Shown: in pieces, positions 17,448-25,056 of the stretch | Layout: every line of letters begins with the position of its first letter | How positions within the stretch are numbered: position 1 is the first letter of the stretch | Assembly: GCA_039815185.1 (NCBI GenBank) | Contig: JBCBZT010000081.1 | Coordinates: 1 to 25,056 of the forward strand | Source: Cyanobacteria bacterium P01_A01_bin.123 | Lineage (GTDB): Bacteria > Cyanobacteriota > Cyanobacteriia > Phormidesmidales > Phormidesmidaceae | DNA length: 25,056 nt | Reading direction: 5' to 3' | Position numbers and translations under genes: made by a program | The notes under the pieces: generated by a model | What the model saw: the letters and a program-made list of their open reading frames with translations, nothing else | Database searches by the model: none | Told to the model about the DNA's origin: nothing

Positions 17448-18542
17448 CTACTCGAACAAACGCTTAATTTGATCGACATCAATTGTGAAGTTCATGTTTT
17501 TACTATAGGCAATGATGTCTTTCTGGAAGGGGGTCTTAGTTTGACTTGGCTGACCAAATGCATAGGTATACTCATGGCCACAAGCCTTTGATAGGTAATA
17601 ATAATGTGGAAACGCTACTGAACCTGAAAAAAGCTCGATAACCTTTAATTTAGATCCAAAGATCATATTAGTTAAGCCTGCGCCATGGGGCGACAAAACT
17701 ATCTCAGCATCATAGAATAAATCTATCTGTTCTTGAGGTGAGAGAGTCTCTAATAAATACTTTTTAAATCCATGGCGATCAAGAACCGCAAGCATCTCAT
17801 CCTCGTTAACAATGTGACGACAATTGTAAGCCTTTTCTCGGCTAATATAAATTCTATGCCTCTTCTCACGCGATCGTTTGGGCAAGAGGGGGTCATAAAT
17901 TTTCTGCCGGTAAAAGCTGGGCAGACAGCCAGTTCCCTGACGTACAGGGAAGTCAGACACAATAACCCTCTCTAAGCGATAGAGTTTCCCTTCTTTCACA
18001 GGGTGAGGAATAACATTATCTGGCATAAATGAATTCAAGAAAAACTGGCTCGAAACATGACGAGACAGAATCAACTTCACCTCTTTCTTCTCGTCTTTAA
18101 TCAAAGGGTGCTGGCAAGTCGAGTAGAAACGTGGGAGATTTTCTAGTAGCGCGTGATAGTAATTATTATCGAAGTGGTGAAGTACAGTACACAAGCCTGA
18201 AATTTCTTCCACATCCTTGTTAAAAATGTATTTCAAATTAAAGTCTTCTCTAGATCTGATAACGTTATAAGACTCCAGAATAGGTCTATTCTTGTTAGTT
18301 AAGAGAATTCTGTACTCAGGGCAGTAGAGCACATCCTCCAATATGTGGGTGTTAACATCGCAACTTTTGACCTCAGTGTGAGCATATGCTTGACTAACCT
18401 GAGAGAGAGGCATCTGAACAACTTCTGGAGTCTGGAAAGTTTCTGCACTGAGAAACTTTAAGGATTTCCGCACGGGATAGGCATCTGCCACTGAGACTGG
18501 CCGTACTAAGCCTTGCTTGAGAAGCTTCTTAAAGATCTTCAT
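17448..18542 (-). CDS. Glycosyltransferase family 61 (DUF563-like)
   Basis: NNYYHALLENLPR, RIYISR...RHIVNEDE, EQIDLFYDAEIVLSPHGAGLTNMIF, VIELF. ATG 18542 chosen (ORF open to 18620). Confidence 0.88.
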   Translation of the reverse strand: MKIFKKLLKQGLVRPVSVADAYPVRKSLKFLSAETFQTPEVVQMPLSQVSQAYAHTEVKSCDVNTHILEDVLYCPEYRILLTNKNRPILESYNVIRSREDFNLKYIFNKDVEEISGLCTVLHHFDNNYYHALLENLPRFYSTCQHPLIKDEKKEVKLILSRHVSSQFFLNSFMPDNVIPHPVKEGKLYRLERVIVSDFPVRQGTGCLPSFYRQKIYDPLLPKRSREKRHRIYISREKAYNCRHIVNEDEMLAVLDRHGFKKYLLETLSPQEQIDLFYDAEIVLSPHGAGLTNMIFGSKLKVIELFSGSVAFPHYYYLSKACGHEYTYAFGQPSQTKTPFQKDIIAYSKNMNFTIDVDQIKRLFE

Positions 18543-19059
18543 GAGATTACCAGATGTATTGGGGGAGAATACGATCTTGCACCTGTTACCTAAACGCTTT
18601 TGAGTCAAGCGTGTGGTCAAATTTGGCCACCATAAAGCAACGAAACACCTCGACGCACTAAAGTTCGGGGTATTTGCAAAATCTTGGTCAAATCATCATG
18701 GATAACAAGCTATTTCACAAACCCTTAAAAGTAGTTTCATCTTAGCTTGACAACCCAACGTTCCATATTCGGCACCAAGGTCAATAACACCAGGATTCTA
18801 TGGCAACGATAGCGATATCAACTATTTAGGCCAAGGTGTTTGTCATTGCTTATTGTGCATCTAACACCATCTAAACTCGAATGATATAGGGCCACTATGA
18901 CAGGTGGCCGCTTGGCGTCTCTAGCAAAACAGTTGGCGCGACTTGAGGCCTGGAGCAATGCGGTAAAGAATATATAGTCTGCATAGGTTATCACCCTTGA
19001 GAAATAGGGTGCCACAGACCCCAAGTTATCCTAGTTATTTTGATGTCCCCGATTTTCCA

Positions 19060-20397
19060 ATGAGTGATACTTCTCGATATTGGACGTTGATGCGGCTTGA
19101 AGCGTCTGGCAAGGCCAGAACGCGAGTGCTAGAAACCGCTAAAATCTGGTTTGAGAGTTGCTTTGACTCCGTTCAGGCAGATCAGGTGCAGACTCAATTG
19201 TGGACTATCTACCAAGGTAAGCACGACGAAGTGGCATCGGCTCAGTTGTGTTTGCGCTGCTGGGTGTCCCAGGGCATTTATCAGGCCTGTGCTCAACTGG
19301 TGCAGAAGTTTGGACAGCGGTATCAATTTACTTTGACCGATTTGTTGGGCTATGTGCTTGATGATGATGGAAAATCTTTGGGGGCTTATCAACCCCTAAC
19401 CGTGAAAATTTTGGAGTCCTTTGATGCAACCAAAGGCAAGCTCTTGAGCTGGGTATACAAGCTCACCCAAAGTCACCCCGACATCAACCGTCTTCTTCTT
19501 GATCGCGGCTTGTATCGAGCCAGTGACTGGGCCATTCTCAATGACACATCGCTATCCCAATTGCAGCGCATTTTGAGGGACATTTATGGCTGGAGTGAGA
19601 CCGAAGTCGCTCAGCCTTGTCGCTTGCTGGCGTGCTATCACCAGATCTATCGGCAGACGCGATTGCAGCAACGTTTGGCTAAAACCGCTAGACATCGTTG
19701 TGAAGCCCCCAACGACAATCAATTGCAGCAAATCGACGGAACGCGATCGCCCCAAACGGTTTTGGCCCAGCTTAAAGCACTTGCCGATGTGTTGCGCGAT
19801 CACAAAGTGCAGGTGCGACAGGGTGCTCCTTTTGCTGTCTCTATGGATAGTCTGGATCCAGAACGCTTGGTGGTTAACGACGCCTCTGACGATAGCGAAA
19901 CAGAGACGACCCGTTTCTTGCAGGGCTATCGCAGCCAACTGAAGCAGTGCCTGGTGGACAGCTTAACTGCCGGGATTCAGTTCAAAGTCGACAAATTCAA
20001 GCGTAAACAGCCGGAAAAAGCCCACGCTTTTGTCAAAGGGTTATCGCTTTTCCATTGTGAGGGGCTATCTATGGGGGCGATCGCGCCCCAAGTCGGTTGT
20101 CAAACCCAGGTACAGGTGACCCGCCTGCTAGACCTCAAGCGCTTTCGCCAGGACGTTCGCAACCAGATTATTCCCTGCTTGCAGACGAGGTTGCAAACGC
20201 AAGCCCTCACCTATGTCAGCGCTGATCGGTTACAAGCCATTGCCCATCAGCTCGATCAACTCTTGAGTGACGATGTGGATCGGGTTATGGCCGAAGCCGC
20301 TGCCGAAGCTCAAATGCCTAAGAATCGAACGACTCGCAGCCTGTTCGCGGTGCAGCTTTGCCAAACCATCCATGTCTTTCTCGATGAAGCCGCCTGA
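19060..20397 (+). CDS. Sigma-70-like / HetZ-related HTH protein
   Basis: Motifs AQLCLRCWVS, VLDDDG, ILESFD, SDWAILND and a sigma region-4-like HTH LSLFHCEGLSMGAIAPQVG..QVQVTRLL (~20041-20130). ATG 19060 chosen. Confidence 0.65.
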   Translation: MSDTSRYWTLMRLEASGKARTRVLETAKIWFESCFDSVQADQVQTQLWTIYQGKHDEVASAQLCLRCWVSQGIYQACAQLVQKFGQRYQFTLTDLLGYVLDDDGKSLGAYQPLTVKILESFDATKGKLLSWVYKLTQSHPDINRLLLDRGLYRASDWAILNDTSLSQLQRILRDIYGWSETEVAQPCRLLACYHQIYRQTRLQQRLAKTARHRCEAPNDNQLQQIDGTRSPQTVLAQLKALADVLRDHKVQVRQGAPFAVSMDSLDPERLVVNDASDDSETETTRFLQGYRSQLKQCLVDSLTAGIQFKVDKFKRKQPEKAHAFVKGLSLFHCEGLSMGAIAPQVGCQTQVQVTRLLDLKRFRQDVRNQIIPCLQTRLQTQALTYVSADRLQAIAHQLDQLLSDDVDRVMAEAAAEAQMPKNRTTRSLFAVQLCQTIHVFLDEAA

Positions 20398-20434
20398 GGC
20401 GGTAATCCAGTTTATTCACAGCAGGCGACCTATC

Positions 20435-21595
20435 ATGTTGACCCTTCCCTCCCTAACCTTGAGTACCATGGACTTCCATTCTTCCCTTGACGCCATCACC
20501 CTCACCCCAGCAGACCTTGACTGGGTAAGCCAGCGCTGTCAAGCGTCAGTTGACGAAACCCTTCAGTGGCAGGGATTCCTGGAACATATGGCAATTTGCG
20601 GTGTGCAGCAATGGCTAGAAGCTGGGGTGGTTGACTTTAACATCCATCTGGAGTCTGGAACGTCCGCCAGCCATCTGCGGATCAACGGTTACCGTCTACA
20701 AATTGTGCCGATGGGCAGCTTTAGTGACGAGTGGGTGATGCTAACGCGATCGCAACCTGCATCTCCTGACAATCAGCCCCATCTCTATATTTTGGTCGAA
20801 GTCATTGAGGAGACCGACCAAGTGATCATCCTCAGTGGCCTGCGCGGCGATCAACTTGTCGATGTGATGGCTCAATATGCGATCGCCCCCAACCCTCAAA
20901 CCCCAATCACACTTCCCGTCACCGCTTTCACCACCTCCCCCGATCAGATTCTGCTCTACCTCACCTGCCTTGACCCCGCAACCCTCAGTCCCCAGGGAAT
21001 CGTTTCAGCAGAGCAACCCTCCATCCCTCACCCCTCACCCATGACTGCCTCTGAAACGCCTAGTGGAACTTCCCTGCGATCGCCGCTAATCAACGTCAGC
21101 CAATGGCTTAATAACCAACTCGACGCGATCGCCGAACAACTGGCCTGGACTCTCTTGCCACCCTTAACACCGTCTCCCTTACGCGGCATTCGCACGCCGG
21201 TTGAAGAGCTAGAAGCAATCGTTTACGAACTCGACCCCCAGCGAATGACAATTCCCCCCAGGGCCCGAGGGGCTTACCAGGCGCTCCAGCTTGCCGGCCT
21301 GCCCCTACGTCTCTATGCCATGGTCTGGGCCGTGGTGGAATCCGCTGAACCAGAATGGAGTCTGATGGTGTTTTTAGGGGCTGGAGAAGGCGATCGCTTG
21401 CCAGACGGCCTCCAACTCCAGATTCAAGATCAAACTGGGATCTTAGCCAACCAAACTTTTCAAGCGAATGTAGGGTCTGACTTCTTATATGCCCAAGTGA
21501 TTGGCCACTGGGACGAGTCGTTTATGGTGTCACTCTCCTTACCCAACGGCGTATCCCTCACCCTGCCCCCCTTTGCCTACCAACCCAACGCCTAA
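20435..21595 (+). CDS. DUF1822-like protein
   Basis: WQGFLEHMAICGVQQWL, PHLYILVEVIEE, LLYLTCL, INVSQWLNNQLD..A..LAWTLL, and a C-terminal beta domain LPDGLQLQIQD...LYAQVIG.WDESF.V...TLPPF. ATG 20435 chosen. Confidence 0.75.
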   Translation: MLTLPSLTLSTMDFHSSLDAITLTPADLDWVSQRCQASVDETLQWQGFLEHMAICGVQQWLEAGVVDFNIHLESGTSASHLRINGYRLQIVPMGSFSDEWVMLTRSQPASPDNQPHLYILVEVIEETDQVIILSGLRGDQLVDVMAQYAIAPNPQTPITLPVTAFTTSPDQILLYLTCLDPATLSPQGIVSAEQPSIPHPSPMTASETPSGTSLRSPLINVSQWLNNQLDAIAEQLAWTLLPPLTPSPLRGIRTPVEELEAIVYELDPQRMTIPPRARGAYQALQLAGLPLRLYAMVWAVVESAEPEWSLMVFLGAGEGDRLPDGLQLQIQDQTGILANQTFQANVGSDFLYAQVIGHWDESFMVSLSLPNGVSLTLPPFAYQPNA

Positions 21596-21692
21596 ATTTT
21601 CCCTCTCCTTATTCCCTCCGGAAAGGCTACAAAAGACTCCGGTCAGGACAAGCTCCCCCTCTGCCCCCTTGCTTCCCCCTCTCCCCGTCTCT

Positions 21693-24224
21693 ATGTTTTA
21701 TCAGCTCACGGTTCAAAAAATTGAGCAAACCTGTGTCTTCAACCTGACCTGGGGCAACCACCAGCGACTCCATGCTGAGGTTCCGTTTCCACCTGCGATT
21801 TTGCAATTCTACAAAAACTGGCAGGCTGCTTATCTCGGATACTACCAGGCAGAATTAAGGGGTGTAGTACTGCAAGATCCGACTCAGCAGGGGGCAGTGT
21901 CACCAGCACCAGACCCGAAAAATTCAGACCTGCGGGGGCGTCCTGGGATGGTGGGGCAGGTCGCCTCGCAAGCCGTGAACTGGCATAGTCAACTGGCCCA
22001 AACAGAAGCCCAACTGCTGTCTGAATTTCACCGCTGGCTGCTGGGCGAACCGCTACACAAAATTCGTCAAACTCTAATAGAAGGGCTAGACACCCTAGGC
22101 CCTGATACCACGCTAAATGTATTTCTCACCTGCACACCGATTGAGTTAGCCCGCCTCCCCTGGGAAACCTGGGAACTAGACAAAGGCTCAGCCAACTGCT
22201 TACGCTTTGCCCGATCGCCGATCAACATTGAAGCCACCACGCCACCTCGACGACAGTTTCGCAAAGGACGAGCGCGGGTTCTGGCGATTTTGGGAGATTC
22301 TACCCACATCAACGCCCGACAGGATCTCGACACCCTGCAAGAAAGACTCAAACGCACGGTAGAAATTGAATCGGTAATTTGGCACTCGGGCAAAGCTATC
22401 ACGACATTGAAACAGGAAATCCGCGATCGCCTAAGGGATCCCTTAGGCTGGGATATCCTCTTTTTTGCAGGGCACAGCAATGAACAAAAACTGGTGAAAG
22501 GGGAAATCGCGATCGCGCCCAGTGTCACCCTATCTATGCGTACCCTGGAGCCTGACCTCGAAATTGCTAAAGCACGGGGGCTGCAATTTGCCCTGTTCAA
22601 TTCTTGCAGCGGCCTTGATATTGCCGATGCACTCATCGGTATGGGGTTGAGTCAAGTCGCCATTATGCGCGAGCCTGTCCATGATCAAGTCGCGCTGGCA
22701 TTTTTAGACAGCTTTTTACAAGGGGTTGCAGGGTATGAAGACGTGCATGATGCCTTGATTAAAGCCTGTCGCCACCTGCGATCGCAGCAGCAGTTGACCT
22801 ACCCCTCAGCCTATTTTATTCCGTCGTTATTTCGCCATCCCAGCGCCACTTTGTTTCAGCTTGAACCCACAGGCTGGAAACGCCAACTGCGCCGGTTCAT
22901 GCCGCAGCGGCGGGAAGCAATTGCCGTAGCGGTGATCACCACCCTCAGCCTACTAACCCCCGTTCACTATTGGTTAGTAGATCAGCGCGTCAAAGTTCAG
23001 GCCCAATATCGCCAATTAACCCAGCAACAACCTGCACTTATACCCTCAGCCACCACACCACCGGTTTTATTAGTGCAAATTGACGATCAATCGCTCCAGT
23101 TGAGAGAAATTGGTGACCCCAGCATCATGGATCGCACCTATCTAGCTGATTTGGTAGACCAAGCCACAAGCTTAGATGCACCTGTGGTCGCCTTAGACTT
23201 CGTTTTAGACCGGGTACGACCTGACAATGTTTACCTGGGTGAGACCATTCAAAATAACATTGCCGCCAGGCAAAGTTGGTTTATCTTCGCAACCAAGAAA
23301 AGTCACTCTGGGGAATGGCAATGGCCCTTACCTGAGATTTCTGAAAACACTTGGAGCCTGCGAGGGGATATGAATATTCCCCTGTGGAATGTTGCCCCAC
23401 TGCGTCGTAGCAATAGCGATCGCCCGATGCCATTCAGCTACCAAATCGCAGTCGCCTATCAACTCAGTCAGTCAGGGAGTACAACGGAGAATTCGCTTAA
23501 GTTGGCTCCGACTTTGCAAGAGCGGCGATCGCTCCAAAGCCAAATCTTTGATCTATCATCTCGTCTAGATGCTGACAGTCAGGCTGTGATCACCTCAAAA
23601 AATGCCAACCTTAACCTGATCACCGCACTCTCTTATCGATTTAGATTGCGGTGGTTGCAACCTATTCTAGACTTTTCCATCGCGCCAGAGCAGGTTTATC
23701 AAACTATCCCTGCGTGGCATTTTTTAGATCAGAACGGGAGGACGCTACCCAAAAATTTAGGGGCGTCCTCTTTACAAGAGAAAATCGTCATCATTGCTCC
23801 AGGTGGTTACGACGAAGCTGGCGTCAATCAAGAGGGTGAAGACAATTTTCCGATGCCCCCTGCGATCGCTTACTGGCGTCAACAAACGGGCAATCCTAAC
23901 CGGGGTCTAACCGGAGGAGAAGCTCATAGCTACATGATTCATCACTATCTCAACCAGCATTTTATCATTCCCATTCCAGACACTTGGATGGTGCTGCTCA
24001 CGGCGGCATGTAGCAAGTTATTGATTGTTATCTTACCTAACCAGGTGTTCAAATCCCGATGGCAGTTCACATCAGTTTTGGCTTTAGGCACAGGAGTTTA
24101 TGGCGTCTTGAGTATGCAAGTTTATATCTCTGGACAATTGCTGTTGCCGTGGCTATTGCCTAGCCTAATCATTTGGAGTTATTGGCTCCCCCTACTTTTG
24201 GAGAACCCCTATGAATCTCACTAA
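21693..24224 (+). CDS. CHAT (caspase-like) protease domain + TM + CHASE2 sensor + 3 TM membrane protein
   Basis: CHAT motifs LARLPWE, RVLAILG, ILFFAGHS (His 22473-22475), ALFNSCSG (Cys 22605-22607). TM at ~22917-22980. CHASE2 motifs VLLVQIDDQSL, RTYLADLV, VVALDFVLD, EKIVII, GGEAH. Three C-terminal TM helices. ATG 21693 chosen. Confidence 0.85.
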   Translation: MFYQLTVQKIEQTCVFNLTWGNHQRLHAEVPFPPAILQFYKNWQAAYLGYYQAELRGVVLQDPTQQGAVSPAPDPKNSDLRGRPGMVGQVASQAVNWHSQLAQTEAQLLSEFHRWLLGEPLHKIRQTLIEGLDTLGPDTTLNVFLTCTPIELARLPWETWELDKGSANCLRFARSPINIEATTPPRRQFRKGRARVLAILGDSTHINARQDLDTLQERLKRTVEIESVIWHSGKAITTLKQEIRDRLRDPLGWDILFFAGHSNEQKLVKGEIAIAPSVTLSMRTLEPDLEIAKARGLQFALFNSCSGLDIADALIGMGLSQVAIMREPVHDQVALAFLDSFLQGVAGYEDVHDALIKACRHLRSQQQLTYPSAYFIPSLFRHPSATLFQLEPTGWKRQLRRFMPQRREAIAVAVITTLSLLTPVHYWLVDQRVKVQAQYRQLTQQQPALIPSATTPPVLLVQIDDQSLQLREIGDPSIMDRTYLADLVDQATSLDAPVVALDFVLDRVRPDNVYLGETIQNNIAARQSWFIFATKKSHSGEWQWPLPEISENTWSLRGDMNIPLWNVAPLRRSNSDRPMPFSYQIAVAYQLSQSGSTTENSLKLAPTLQERRSLQSQIFDLSSRLDADSQAVITSKNANLNLITALSYRFRLRWLQPILDFSIAPEQVYQTIPAWHFLDQNGRTLPKNLGASSLQEKIVIIAPGGYDEAGVNQEGEDNFPMPPAIAYWRQQTGNPNRGLTGGEAHSYMIHHYLNQHFIIPIPDTWMVLLTAACSKLLIVILPNQVFKSRWQFTSVLALGTGVYGVLSMQVYISGQLLLPWLLPSLIIWSYWLPLLLENPYESH

Positions 24225-25056
24225 TTGGACACGTTTTGTTTGCCGAACAGCCAGCTATCTCGGTGTTGCCTTACTATTACCGACTCAGTCAATATTGGCC
24301 CAAACTAATCTCGATGACTCACTTACCTGGACTAATTTTCTCAACTCCTGGTTAGAGCAAGAAGATCCAGGACGGAATCGGAATGGGGGGGGGCGTCTCC
24401 CAGACTTTTGTGCCGTCACTAGCTATGCAGACCCGATTCAAGTGTGGCACTTACAGCCAATCTATCTTTGGCAAGGGGCAGAAAGACCTGTGGCTATCCG
24501 TCCGGATGGTGATACCGACAACACTTTAGCAGCAGATGTTACCGTTGAATCAGCAACAGAGCTGAATGTAGCTCAAAGCTCCGAGAACCCATTGCAGCCA
24601 GGAGAAAGTTACGACTGGATCCTTTATGATCGCCTCGATCCAGAGCAGGAGATTATGGTTGAACCCTTTCAGGTGATGACCATAGCTAAGCGGCATCAAG
24701 TGACTACAGCGCTCGAGCAATTGGTTGAAGACTTAGACAACCAGGGGGCCTCAGCTGAAGAAATTGCTTTAGCTAAAGCGAACTACTTCCTTGAGCAAGG
24801 GCTGATGGTAGACGCTGTGCAAAGTATGTTCTTGGTTGAAGAACCTTCGTCCCACGTGCTAGGAAGTCGGACGGGGATGGTTGTTAAGCTATGTAATCCA
24901 GGGCCATTGCCAGGAGAAGACACAGCGTTCGGGATGGGGCATGATGGCCAAGTGACGCCCATCGGGGGAGCAGACACCGGCGATGCCTTGGTCGCTGCCG
25001 TTCGGGCAGAACGGGTACGCGTCGGTTACTTTGCCGTCGTCGTCAGCGAAGCGCAA
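24211..25056 (+). CDS. DUF928-like secreted protein (absent from ORF track; no stop before window end; homology seems to end ~24897)
   Basis: ATG 24211 overlaps the upstream gene by 14 nt. My translation: MNLTNWTRFVCRTASYLGVALLLPTQSILAQ (signal-like)...GRNRNGGGRLPDFCAV...VWHLQPIYLWQG...PLQPGESYDW...FQVM...GASAEEIALAKANYFLEQGLMVDAVQ...KLCN. Confidence 0.75.
   Translation, partial: MNLTNWTRFVCRTASYLGVALLLPTQSILAQTNLDDSLTWTNFLNSWLEQEDPGRNRNGGGRLPDFCAVTSYADPIQVWHLQPIYLWQGAERPVAIRPDGDTDNTLAADVTVESATELNVAQSSENPLQPGESYDWILYDRLDPEQEIMVEPFQVMTIAKRHQVTTALEQLVEDLDNQGASAEEIALAKANYFLEQGLMVDAVQSMFLVEEPSSHVLGSRTGMVVKLCNPGPLPGEDTAFGMGHDGQVTPIGGADTGDALVAAVRAERVRVGYFAVVVSEAQ
24889..25056 (-). CDS. purL: 3' fragment of large-type FGAM synthase (PurL) glutaminase domain; foreign-looking and truncated
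   Basis: Minus frame from the window end reads LRFADDDGKVTDAYPFCPNGSDQGIAGVCSPDGRHLAIMPHPERCVFSWQWPWIT*. It contains YP.xPNGS, GIAG.CSPDGRHLA.MPHPER (His-Pro-Glu catalytic motif) and WQWPW. 24901-25056 is 100/156 GC (64%). Confidence 0.75.
   Translation of the reverse strand: MRFADDDGKVTDAYPFCPNGSDQGIAGVCSPDGRHLAIMPHPERCVFSWQWPWIT

Follow-up and report, generated by a model that had tools for sequence, protein, structure and literature searches.

A conserved cyanobacterial operon joining a divergent sigma-like factor, a DUF1822 protein and a CHASE2–caspase receptor: a candidate trans-envelope switch

Introduction

How might a cyanobacterium act on the signal of an extracytoplasmic CHASE2 sensor that comes with a caspase-like protease and with no kinase or cyclase? 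This question is raised by four closely spaced genes at the end of a 25,056-nucleotide (nt) contig from Cyanobacteria bacterium P01_A01_bin.123 (GenBank assembly GCA_039815185.1, contig JBCBZT010000081.1), which was analysed as a whole and is called the window below (contig C78 of the 8.09 Mb assembly; completeness 99.99, contamination 5.99). The genes, numbered 1 to 4, encode a sigma-like protein, a DUF1822 protein, a receptor joining a CHAT protease domain to CHASE2, and an exported protein related to DUF928. A model working from the sequence alone had proposed that DUF928 activates the receptor through CHASE2, and that the CHAT domain then cuts DUF1822 and frees the sigma-like factor (the original prediction).

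We find that the operon is real and conserved and that its gene set was already catalogued computationally in 2021. With a probability of roughly 0.6 we favour a trans-envelope switch in which the receptor caspase cuts DUF1822 and thereby frees a divergent sigma factor for private promoters. The gene set, the domains, the catalytic dyad, the co-occurrence and the promoter-like motif with its link to the sigma type are established; new in this work are the sigma2/sigma4 model of gene 1, the predicted DUF1822 fold with its arginine loop, and the promoter-like motif with its candidate regulon.

Results and Discussion

The operon and its recurrence

The four open reading frames (ORFs) lie on the same strand at 19060-20397, 20435-21595, 21693-24224 and from 24211 onward, the first three separated by 37 and 97 nt and the last two overlapping by 14 nt, exactly the arrangement originally described; coordinates refer to the plus strand unless a minus strand is given. 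In order to see whether the neighbourhood recurs, as the original prediction had it for filamentous cyanobacteria, we surveyed 80 receptor loci, 40 of them stretches taken from 198 matches to gene 3 in a phylum-wide sample and 40 taken from 65 non-self matches within its own family; these loci are mostly the best-scoring ones and cover 4.6-10.2 kb of sequence each. The sigma gene together with DUF1822 was present in 56 of the 80 loci, a DUF928-like gene in 68 and all four genes in 45, which is far above chance. The sigma gene was never seen without DUF1822, although in one locus (L069) the counted sigma gene is on the opposite strand. Across the phylum, 85 of 301 sampled genomes contain a receptor-related match.

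The first slot of the operon is filled by three types of sigma factor, namely the type of gene 1, a type of 400-600 amino acids (aa), of which four of four pass TIGR02937, and a small type of 215-260 aa. Each type pairs with its own DUF1822 clade, and the two label changes on the DUF1822 tree are the minimum; this is a quick tree of 56 rows from which L069 was excluded, and since kin share labels the agreement falls short of a proof of co-evolution. The genome studied here has a second cassette of sigma factor, DUF1822 and receptor on contig C113 (L183, 1-10299); behind it lies the gene of a WD40-repeat protein that has a P-loop and is at least 1326 aa long. Two-partner secretion genes border several cassettes (L053, L054, L058, L068). 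A scan of 95 proteins drawn from 42 loci showed no Cas effector other than a TnpB-like transposon gene, and none of the four proteins had a PADLOC match at E <= 0.001 (best E 0.0093).

The receptor protease and its exported neighbour

Gene 3 (21693..24224) encodes a receptor protease of 843 aa in which both CHAT (E 4.5e-10) and CHASE2 (E 4.2e-15) score above the Pfam cut-offs. The order of its parts is a conserved N-terminal module, the caspase-fold CHAT domain, a transmembrane segment, CHASE2 and C-terminal transmembrane segments, with no C-terminal output domain. The hydrophobic segments are at residues 410-428, 764-782 and about 795-828, and hydropathy suggests that the protein sits in the inner membrane with CHASE2 outside and the protease inside. 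As had been read from the sequence, the CHAT domain has a catalytic His261 (22473..22475) and Cys305 (22605..22607); this dyad is conserved in 45 of 47 aligned rows, both exceptions being split genes. We also agree with the original prediction that none of the four proteins matches a kinase, cyclase or receiver domain. A profile of the gene 3 CHAT domain matches the cyanobacterial protease HetF (99.2%, E 3.1e-19). In 78 of the 80 loci, a profile that we built ourselves finds the module of about 125 residues ahead of CHAT in one protein with CHAT and CHASE2; by architecture the module appears to be EACC2.

Gene 4 (24211..24897, stop not seen) encodes an exported protein of at least 229 aa with an N-terminal hydrophobic segment and the cysteine pair Cys67 and Cys228, of which the former is invariant and the latter at least 90% conserved (24 rows). 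Its description as DUF928-like holds in the sense of distant kinship. The protein itself has no match to Pfam DUF928 (PF06051) at E <= 1 and none in NCBIfam, while its profile matches true DUF928 proteins (95.3%, E 2.2e-8), 7 of 23 close orthologues match PF06051 at E <= 0.01 with one of the 23 above the cut-off, and its first match in the Atlas (0.96) belongs to a cluster that is 21% DUF928. Elsewhere in this genome, a CHASE2 histidine kinase (C9) and a further CHASE2 gene (C96) likewise have DUF928 genes at their side, so that DUF928 accompanies CHASE2 irrespective of the type of output; no CHASE2 gene adjoins two further DUF928-like genes, on C23 and C33. On contig C96 (L148, 1905-10001) TpsB is followed by the CHASE2 gene, by DUF928 and by a TpsA gene that runs convergently. 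From gene order, gene 4 may be a ligand or co-receptor of CHASE2.

The DUF1822 protein

Gene 2 (20435..21595; 386 aa) belongs to DUF1822 as stated before (PF08852, E 9.5e-21) and is our candidate for both the anti-sigma factor and the protease substrate. In the structure model (predicted local distance difference test score, pLDDT, 85.4; predicted template modelling score, pTM, 0.58) an alpha/beta N-terminal domain is followed by a disordered stretch, a short conserved Trp-rich element, a loop, and a helix with an immunoglobulin (Ig)-like beta-sandwich. The N-terminal domain (residues 20-183, 20492..20983) has a predicted PD-(D/E)XK nuclease-like fold, its nine best structural matches being nucleases and resolvases of this kind, among them D212 (Z 8.7, root-mean-square deviation (rmsd) 4.0, 133 residues aligned) and I-Ssp6803I (Z 8.0, rmsd 3.1, 117 aligned). 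In an alignment read by eye, the catalytic D...(D/E)xK motif is lost in the clade of gene 2 and replaced by Asn/His and a hydrophobic-Cys pair. Four DUF1822 proteins paired with small sigma factors (L065, L067, L068, L070) retain the Asp and Glu of the motif and could be active or metal-binding. A tetratricopeptide repeat (TPR) or TRADD-N fold was considered for gene 2 and is absent from its 50 best structural matches; TRADD-N stays possible in other proteins labelled DUF1822. The helix and Ig-like sandwich at residues 255-382 (21197..21580), with Ig-like matches at Z 5-6, form a candidate protease-docking domain, and in locus L069 such a C-terminal domain, lacking the nuclease-like part, lies beside a receptor.

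Residues 242-254 are modelled as an open loop with no secondary structure, and this loop contains the candidate cleavage site (residues 249-255 with Arg250 and Arg253, 21179..21199). A hydrophobic-Arg-small motif is present in the loop of 91 of 133 homologues and in 201 of 3106 background windows (6.5%), and 112 of the 133 have an arginine anywhere in the loop.

The modelling of a sigma–DUF1822 complex that had been proposed gave a score of 0.42 for genes 1 and 2, the best of three controls reaching 0.00; the mark for this score was reached by 116 of 157 solved complexes and 2 of 215 mismatched pairs, and values of 0.60 or under, where our pair lies, comprise 18 of the 157 and both mismatches. 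The co-folding runs agreed in at least 47% of contacts with a partner pLDDT of at least 67. These models lend weak support to binding between the two products.

Gene 1 as a probable divergent sigma factor

Gene 1 (19060..20397; 445 aa) is predicted to be a divergent factor of the sigma-70/extracytoplasmic function (ECF) kind with insertions. A family profile of 137 rows matches the TIGR02937-positive sigma factors of sister loci over 351 columns (98.2%, E 4.6e-14), and one member of this sister family matches Sigma70_r2. In the structure model (pLDDT 91.6) residues 38-152 (19171..19515) form a sigma2-like domain, and it is through this domain that sigma factors take 12 of the 13 top places in the structural comparison (Z 6.1-7.4), such as pro-sigmaK (Z 7.4, rmsd 3.9, 99 aligned), RpoS region 2 (Z 6.8, rmsd 3.4, 95 aligned) and SigA domain 2 (Z 6.7, rmsd 3.1, 93 aligned). 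A sigma4-like part at residues 318-357 (20011..20130) has model helices at 318-333, 338-345 and 350-357, and its helix-turn-helix (338-357) aligns with the Sigma70_r4-positive region of the sister family. Sigma70_r4 is also annotated in 12-87% of the members of its Atlas neighbours (0.92-0.96). Comparing the sequence and the profile with solved structures gave nothing meaningful, and sigmaHetZ was among the matches of neither fold search. Gene 1 is not HetZ. On the grounds of structure and profile homology we take it to be a probable sigma factor.

A candidate promoter motif and its predicted regulon

A de novo search in 46 dereplicated 250-nt regions upstream of gene-1-type sigma genes revealed a bipartite motif, TG(A/C)ATA(A/G)G-N12-AG(A/C)N(A/C)TA, at fixed spacing in 27 of them, with a mean of 15.7 bits compared to 10.95-11.39 in four shuffles. 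The window holds the motif once, at 18980..19006, ending 53 nt ahead of the ATG of gene 1; this candidate operon promoter scores 22.8 bits with a matrix that excludes the site itself, and 100 shuffles of the window gave none. The geometry resembles that of ECF promoters with a -35 element starting in TG and a -10 element ending in TA. A scan for generic sigma-70 promoters and terminators stayed at chance level, and the literature matches listed for the motif octamers were unrelated.

The whole genome has 17 sites of at least 20 bits (none in either of two shuffles), and 12 of the 17 lie within 60 nt of an ORF start. Of the genes behind these twelve, three encode TPR-CHAT proteins, two encode C14 caspase-DUF4384 proteins whose N-termini are twin-arginine-like, and two encode proteins with no family; the others are gene 1 itself and the genes of a TPR protein, a leucine-rich repeat (LRR) protein, an EACC2-CHAT receptor on contig C43 that ends ahead of its membrane segment and a STAND-like nucleoside triphosphatase. 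In relatives the motif also precedes TpsB, RTX, PPC and TPR genes and some receptors with no sigma gene. An island of TPR-CHAT, C14 caspase-DUF4384 and TPR genes on contig C33 (L172, 2704-17128) has four strong copies of the motif and transposon genes at its borders; it opens with a truncated gene-4-like ORF and may be the remnant of another cassette.

The motif follows the sigma type. In a set of 121 genomes, from which five with partial sigma matches were set aside, we counted 277 exact matches in the 52 genomes that have a close sigma factor (mean 5.3), 29 in the 54 that have none (0.54) and 7 in the 10 having only the divergent paralogue type, compared to 17, 4 and 8, respectively, for the reversed pattern; as kin are not independent, P-values overstate this difference. 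Leaving out 21 training genomes still gave 104 matches in 31 genomes. Within the genus g169, genomes with the gene 1 sigma factor have 6.0 matches each and those lacking it 0.4, and none of eight loci with other sigma types has a site of at least 16 bits.

Relation to known systems

The closest published description is a computational analysis (Kaur, Iyer, Burroughs and Aravind 2021, PMC8195603), which lists proteins with an EACC2 caspase and CHASE2, of the architecture EACC2+CASPASE+CHASE2+TM+TM (TM, transmembrane segment), next to an ECF sigma factor and DUF1822, the same neighbours as here. In the source data of its Figure 3, the order in Fischerella is a DUF1822-family gene, the receptor, a gene labelled 'TM+beta_rich+TPRs' and a TPR-caspase, and the third of these is probably the DUF928-like gene. 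DUF928 is unnamed in 12 of the 13 supplementary files searched, and file 13 may bear on it; the available passages name no promoter, regulon or cleavage site. Two points differ in that work: DUF1822 is called a TPR protein, whereas the model of gene 2 has a nuclease-like and an Ig-like domain and no TPR array, and activation by an autopeptidase is proposed in place of the DUF1822 cleavage in trans proposed here. The earlier statement that no mechanistic description exists is thus to be narrowed, as neighbourhood and autopeptidase model were in print; what stands is that no experimental study of the cassette was found.

As a mechanistic precedent, the HetF-PatU3-HetZ circuit of the same phylum is closer than the type III-E CRISPR system named in the original prediction. 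In Anabaena PCC 7120 the membrane-anchored CHAT protease HetF, whose CHAT domain is homologous to that of gene 3, cuts the anti-sigma factor PatU3 between Arg117 and Ser118 (PMC9457339). HetZ has been reported as an ECF sigma factor inhibited by PatU3 (Hu et al. 2026, PMC13342950); sigmaHetZ is laden with insertions, co-transcribed with its inhibitor and activates its own circuit, and it reads TCCGGA/TGnA, which is different from the motif found here. The circuits are not orthologous, for hetZ-patU (C99) and hetF (C115) exist in this genome as separate genes: the HetZ model NF037963 matches C99, C92 and C83 and not gene 1, the HetF model NF045509 matches C115, and gene 3 shares only the CHAT domain with HetF. 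A homology between the N-termini of the receptor and HetF was not detected by profile comparison. HetF has a periplasmic TPR sensor in place of CHASE2, and, unlike in HetF-PatU3-HetZ, all parts of the system described here are in one operon. We also note that 31 genomes (L073 2630-3709, L076-L105), including non-heterocystous lineages, hold full-length PatU homologues; all 31 rows have a conserved Arg followed by Ser, Gly or Thr ahead of a helical region and a strand-rich C-terminus, and this Arg is probably the HetF cut site.

The type III-E CRISPR system offers a more distant likeness. There the CHAT protease Csx29 (PMC10028731) cuts the two-domain anti-sigma factor Csx30 in a loop, the N-terminal part of Csx30 binds the sigma factor and its C-terminal part is needed for cleavage, and motifs of CASP-sigma lie within its own locus, as does that of gene 1. 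Csx29 is triggered by target RNA on Cas7-11 and has no membrane receptor, whereas gene 3 is itself one, and Csx30 is absent from the 50 best structural matches of gene 2. For the sensor side, the CHASE2 adenylate cyclases CyaD1, CyaD2 and CyaK of Sinorhizobium meliloti respond, according to a summary (PMC13001267), to a protein signal via NsrA and thus are CHASE2 receptors switched through a dedicated envelope protein; their output is cyclic AMP from a C-terminal cyclase, in contrast to the N-terminal protease of gene 3.

Proposed mechanism and its rivals

In the mechanism that we favour, gene 4, exported and probably disulfide-bonded, would partner CHASE2 and set or relay the input. The activated protease of gene 3 would then cut DUF1822 within the exposed interdomain loop, the likeliest sites being those directly behind Arg250 and Arg253, and the cut would inactivate or destabilise it. 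Uncut DUF1822 would bind and presumably inhibit the gene 1 sigma factor. Judging from co-occurrence, the freed factor would read the TG(A/C)ATA(A/G)G-N12-AG(A/C)N(A/C)TA promoters and, by activating its own operon, give positive feedback. The regulon would be mostly exported, with TPR-CHAT and C14 caspase-like proteases, TPR and LRR proteins and, in relatives, TpsB and RTX proteins, so that the output is probably a cell-surface defence or an envelope or contact response. The originally proposed logic of CHAT cutting DUF1822 fits the survey, the gene 1 model, the weak complex, the arginine loop and the motif, and is in this sense partly supported.

Several observations weigh against this mechanism. 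For 24 of the 80 receptors no sigma gene lies within the 4.6-10.2 kb covered. Conversely, a sigma–DUF1822 pair on contig C109 (L146, 6385-8856) has no adjacent protease; its sigma factor matches Sigma70_r2 and Sigma70_r4, the DUF1822 linker reads Arg-Gly, and the pair may be served by a protease in trans. That this DUF1822 consists of the N-terminal domain only was considered and rejected, the protein being full length (Pfam 15-385). The paralogous cassette on C113 has neither the motif nor a gene 4. In profile comparisons gene 1 reaches a probability of only 1.5% with HetZ and shows no homology to it beyond the helix-turn-helix, and DUF1822 reaches 0.4% and 0.1% with PatU. The literature searched, mostly without subscription papers, gave no experimental study of any cassette member.

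As to the substrate, the loop arginine is absent in 21 of the 133 homologues and in 11 of the 56 paired DUF1822 proteins, yet 10 of the 11 partner receptors keep the dyad. Comparing the loss of the arginine with the protease residues gave only differences at clade level, none readable as a change in S1. The Arg-less loops, with Met/Leu-Ser or Met-Pro, are from L037, L050, L063, L108, L113, L120, L127, L132, L133, L138 and L143; either the specificity changed or cleavage is absent. Intact dyads beside Arg-less DUF1822 would suit the autopeptidase model of Kaur et al. (PMC8195603), in which the receptor cuts itself and the released EACC2 fragment binds the DUF1822-sigma pair, so that DUF1822 is an adaptor and not a substrate. 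This model would also accommodate the 22 of 80 loci in which the receptor has no DUF1822 nearby and the motif-preceded EACC2-CHAT gene on C43, which stops before the membrane segment. It leaves aside the strong enrichment of the arginine motif in an exposed DUF1822 loop, and the related HetF cuts its anti-sigma factor in trans (PMC9457339). We consider the autopeptidase model unlikely, though the strongest of the rivals.

As to the sigma factor, gene 1 itself has no Pfam or NCBIfam family match and hence no sigma hidden Markov model hit, its structural Z scores are all under 8 and thus moderate, and Foldseek gave no match at E <= 0.001, the top three entries being sigma factors. The link between motif and sigma factor is weak in the genus g136 (1.33 versus 0.67 per genome), 5 of the 52 sigma-bearing genomes lack an exact match, and sigma-less genomes are still above the control (29 versus 4). 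Gene 1 could accordingly be a DNA-binding regulator of sigma descent or a sigma factor that is itself dead, with a core-genome sigma factor reading the motif and both travelling together on islands; the lack of a model hit, the moderate Z scores and the residual sites in sigma-less genomes agree with this, as does the clustering of sites in islands close to the cassette, which several genomes show. Against it stand the 351-column homology to proteins that pass a sigma-70 superfamily cut-off, the retention of both sigma2- and sigma4-like parts, the near absence of the motif where gene 1 is missing within one genus (g169, 0.4 versus 6.0), and its near absence from loci with other sigma types. 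We hold this explanation to be slightly less probable than self-cleavage of the receptor.

That DUF1822 is a latent effector, whose cleavage frees the nuclease-fold domain to kill or arrest the cell with the sigma factor as a side arm, is very improbable: the fold, the Asp and Glu surviving in four small-sigma DUF1822 proteins and the commonness of protease-activated death effectors including EACC1 (PMC12642450) speak for it, but the catalytic positions are not conserved in gene 2 or its clade, the four proteins have no PADLOC match at E <= 0.001 and DUF1822 is strictly paired with sigma factors.

The contig end and neighbouring genes

Gene 4 had been taken to end at 24897, but no stop is found there and the frame runs off the contig end. 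The last piece (24898..25056, minus strand) is a fragment of PurL of the large single-chain type (GATase_5, E 2.2e-22; TIGR01735, E 3.6e-23), which is not part of the system and probably marks an assembly join. In public run X1, which may be the source sample, the PurL piece is a separate contig of 3,456 nt with a depth of 54.4, compared to 31.3 for the operon; in run X6 a contig of 10,095 nt diverges from the window at 24849; and none of the pieces listed from four public runs bridges the junction 24897/24898. The cassette itself is found in X5 and X6, which are from other studies, with 95-99% identity. On C6 the genome has a related gene of its own, a short ORF of PurQ size (named from a tblastn match). 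The contig end is thus probably chimeric, with the PurL fragment apparently from another organism. Because the frame leaves the contig into this foreign piece, neither the actual 3' end of gene 4 nor the genes behind it can be seen; as orthologues end 0-20 residues past the conserved Cys228, little of the protein is missing.

Elsewhere in the window an unremarkable cluster of the genes for trigger factor, clpP and clpX, identified from their translations, occupies positions 1-2804, and a glycosyltransferase family 61 gene (17448-18620, minus strand), which lies in a stretch of low GC content (0.42-0.45 versus about 0.50), is divergent from the operon.

Conclusion

In summary, the four genes belong to a conserved operon for which we propose a protease-triggered sigma switch. 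In a wider reading, for which we see about even odds, this would be a widespread cyanobacterial receptor-caspase pathway with a DUF928-type co-receptor, an anti-sigma factor of dead nuclease fold, a dedicated and very divergent sigma factor, and a private promoter that switches on exported products, namely caspase-like proteases, TPR and LRR proteins and proteins of two-partner secretion. In such a pathway DUF1822 would act as a modular substrate, the C-terminal Ig domain and the arginine loop docking on the protease and the N-terminal domain being exchanged with the sigma type, and the paralogous cassettes of a genome would work as channels insulated from one another, with promoters that differ.

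Many filamentous cyanobacteria have these cassettes, and they also have numerous caspase-like proteases for which no control is known. If the proposed switch is true, functions could be assigned to DUF1822 and DUF928, a class of receptor in which CHASE2 drives a protease would be added to those known, and the logic of HetF-PatU3-HetZ would be seen to be reused with other pairs of sigma and anti-sigma factors. With promoter and cut site named, it might then be possible to rebuild the chain in E. coli with a cyanobacterial RNA polymerase.

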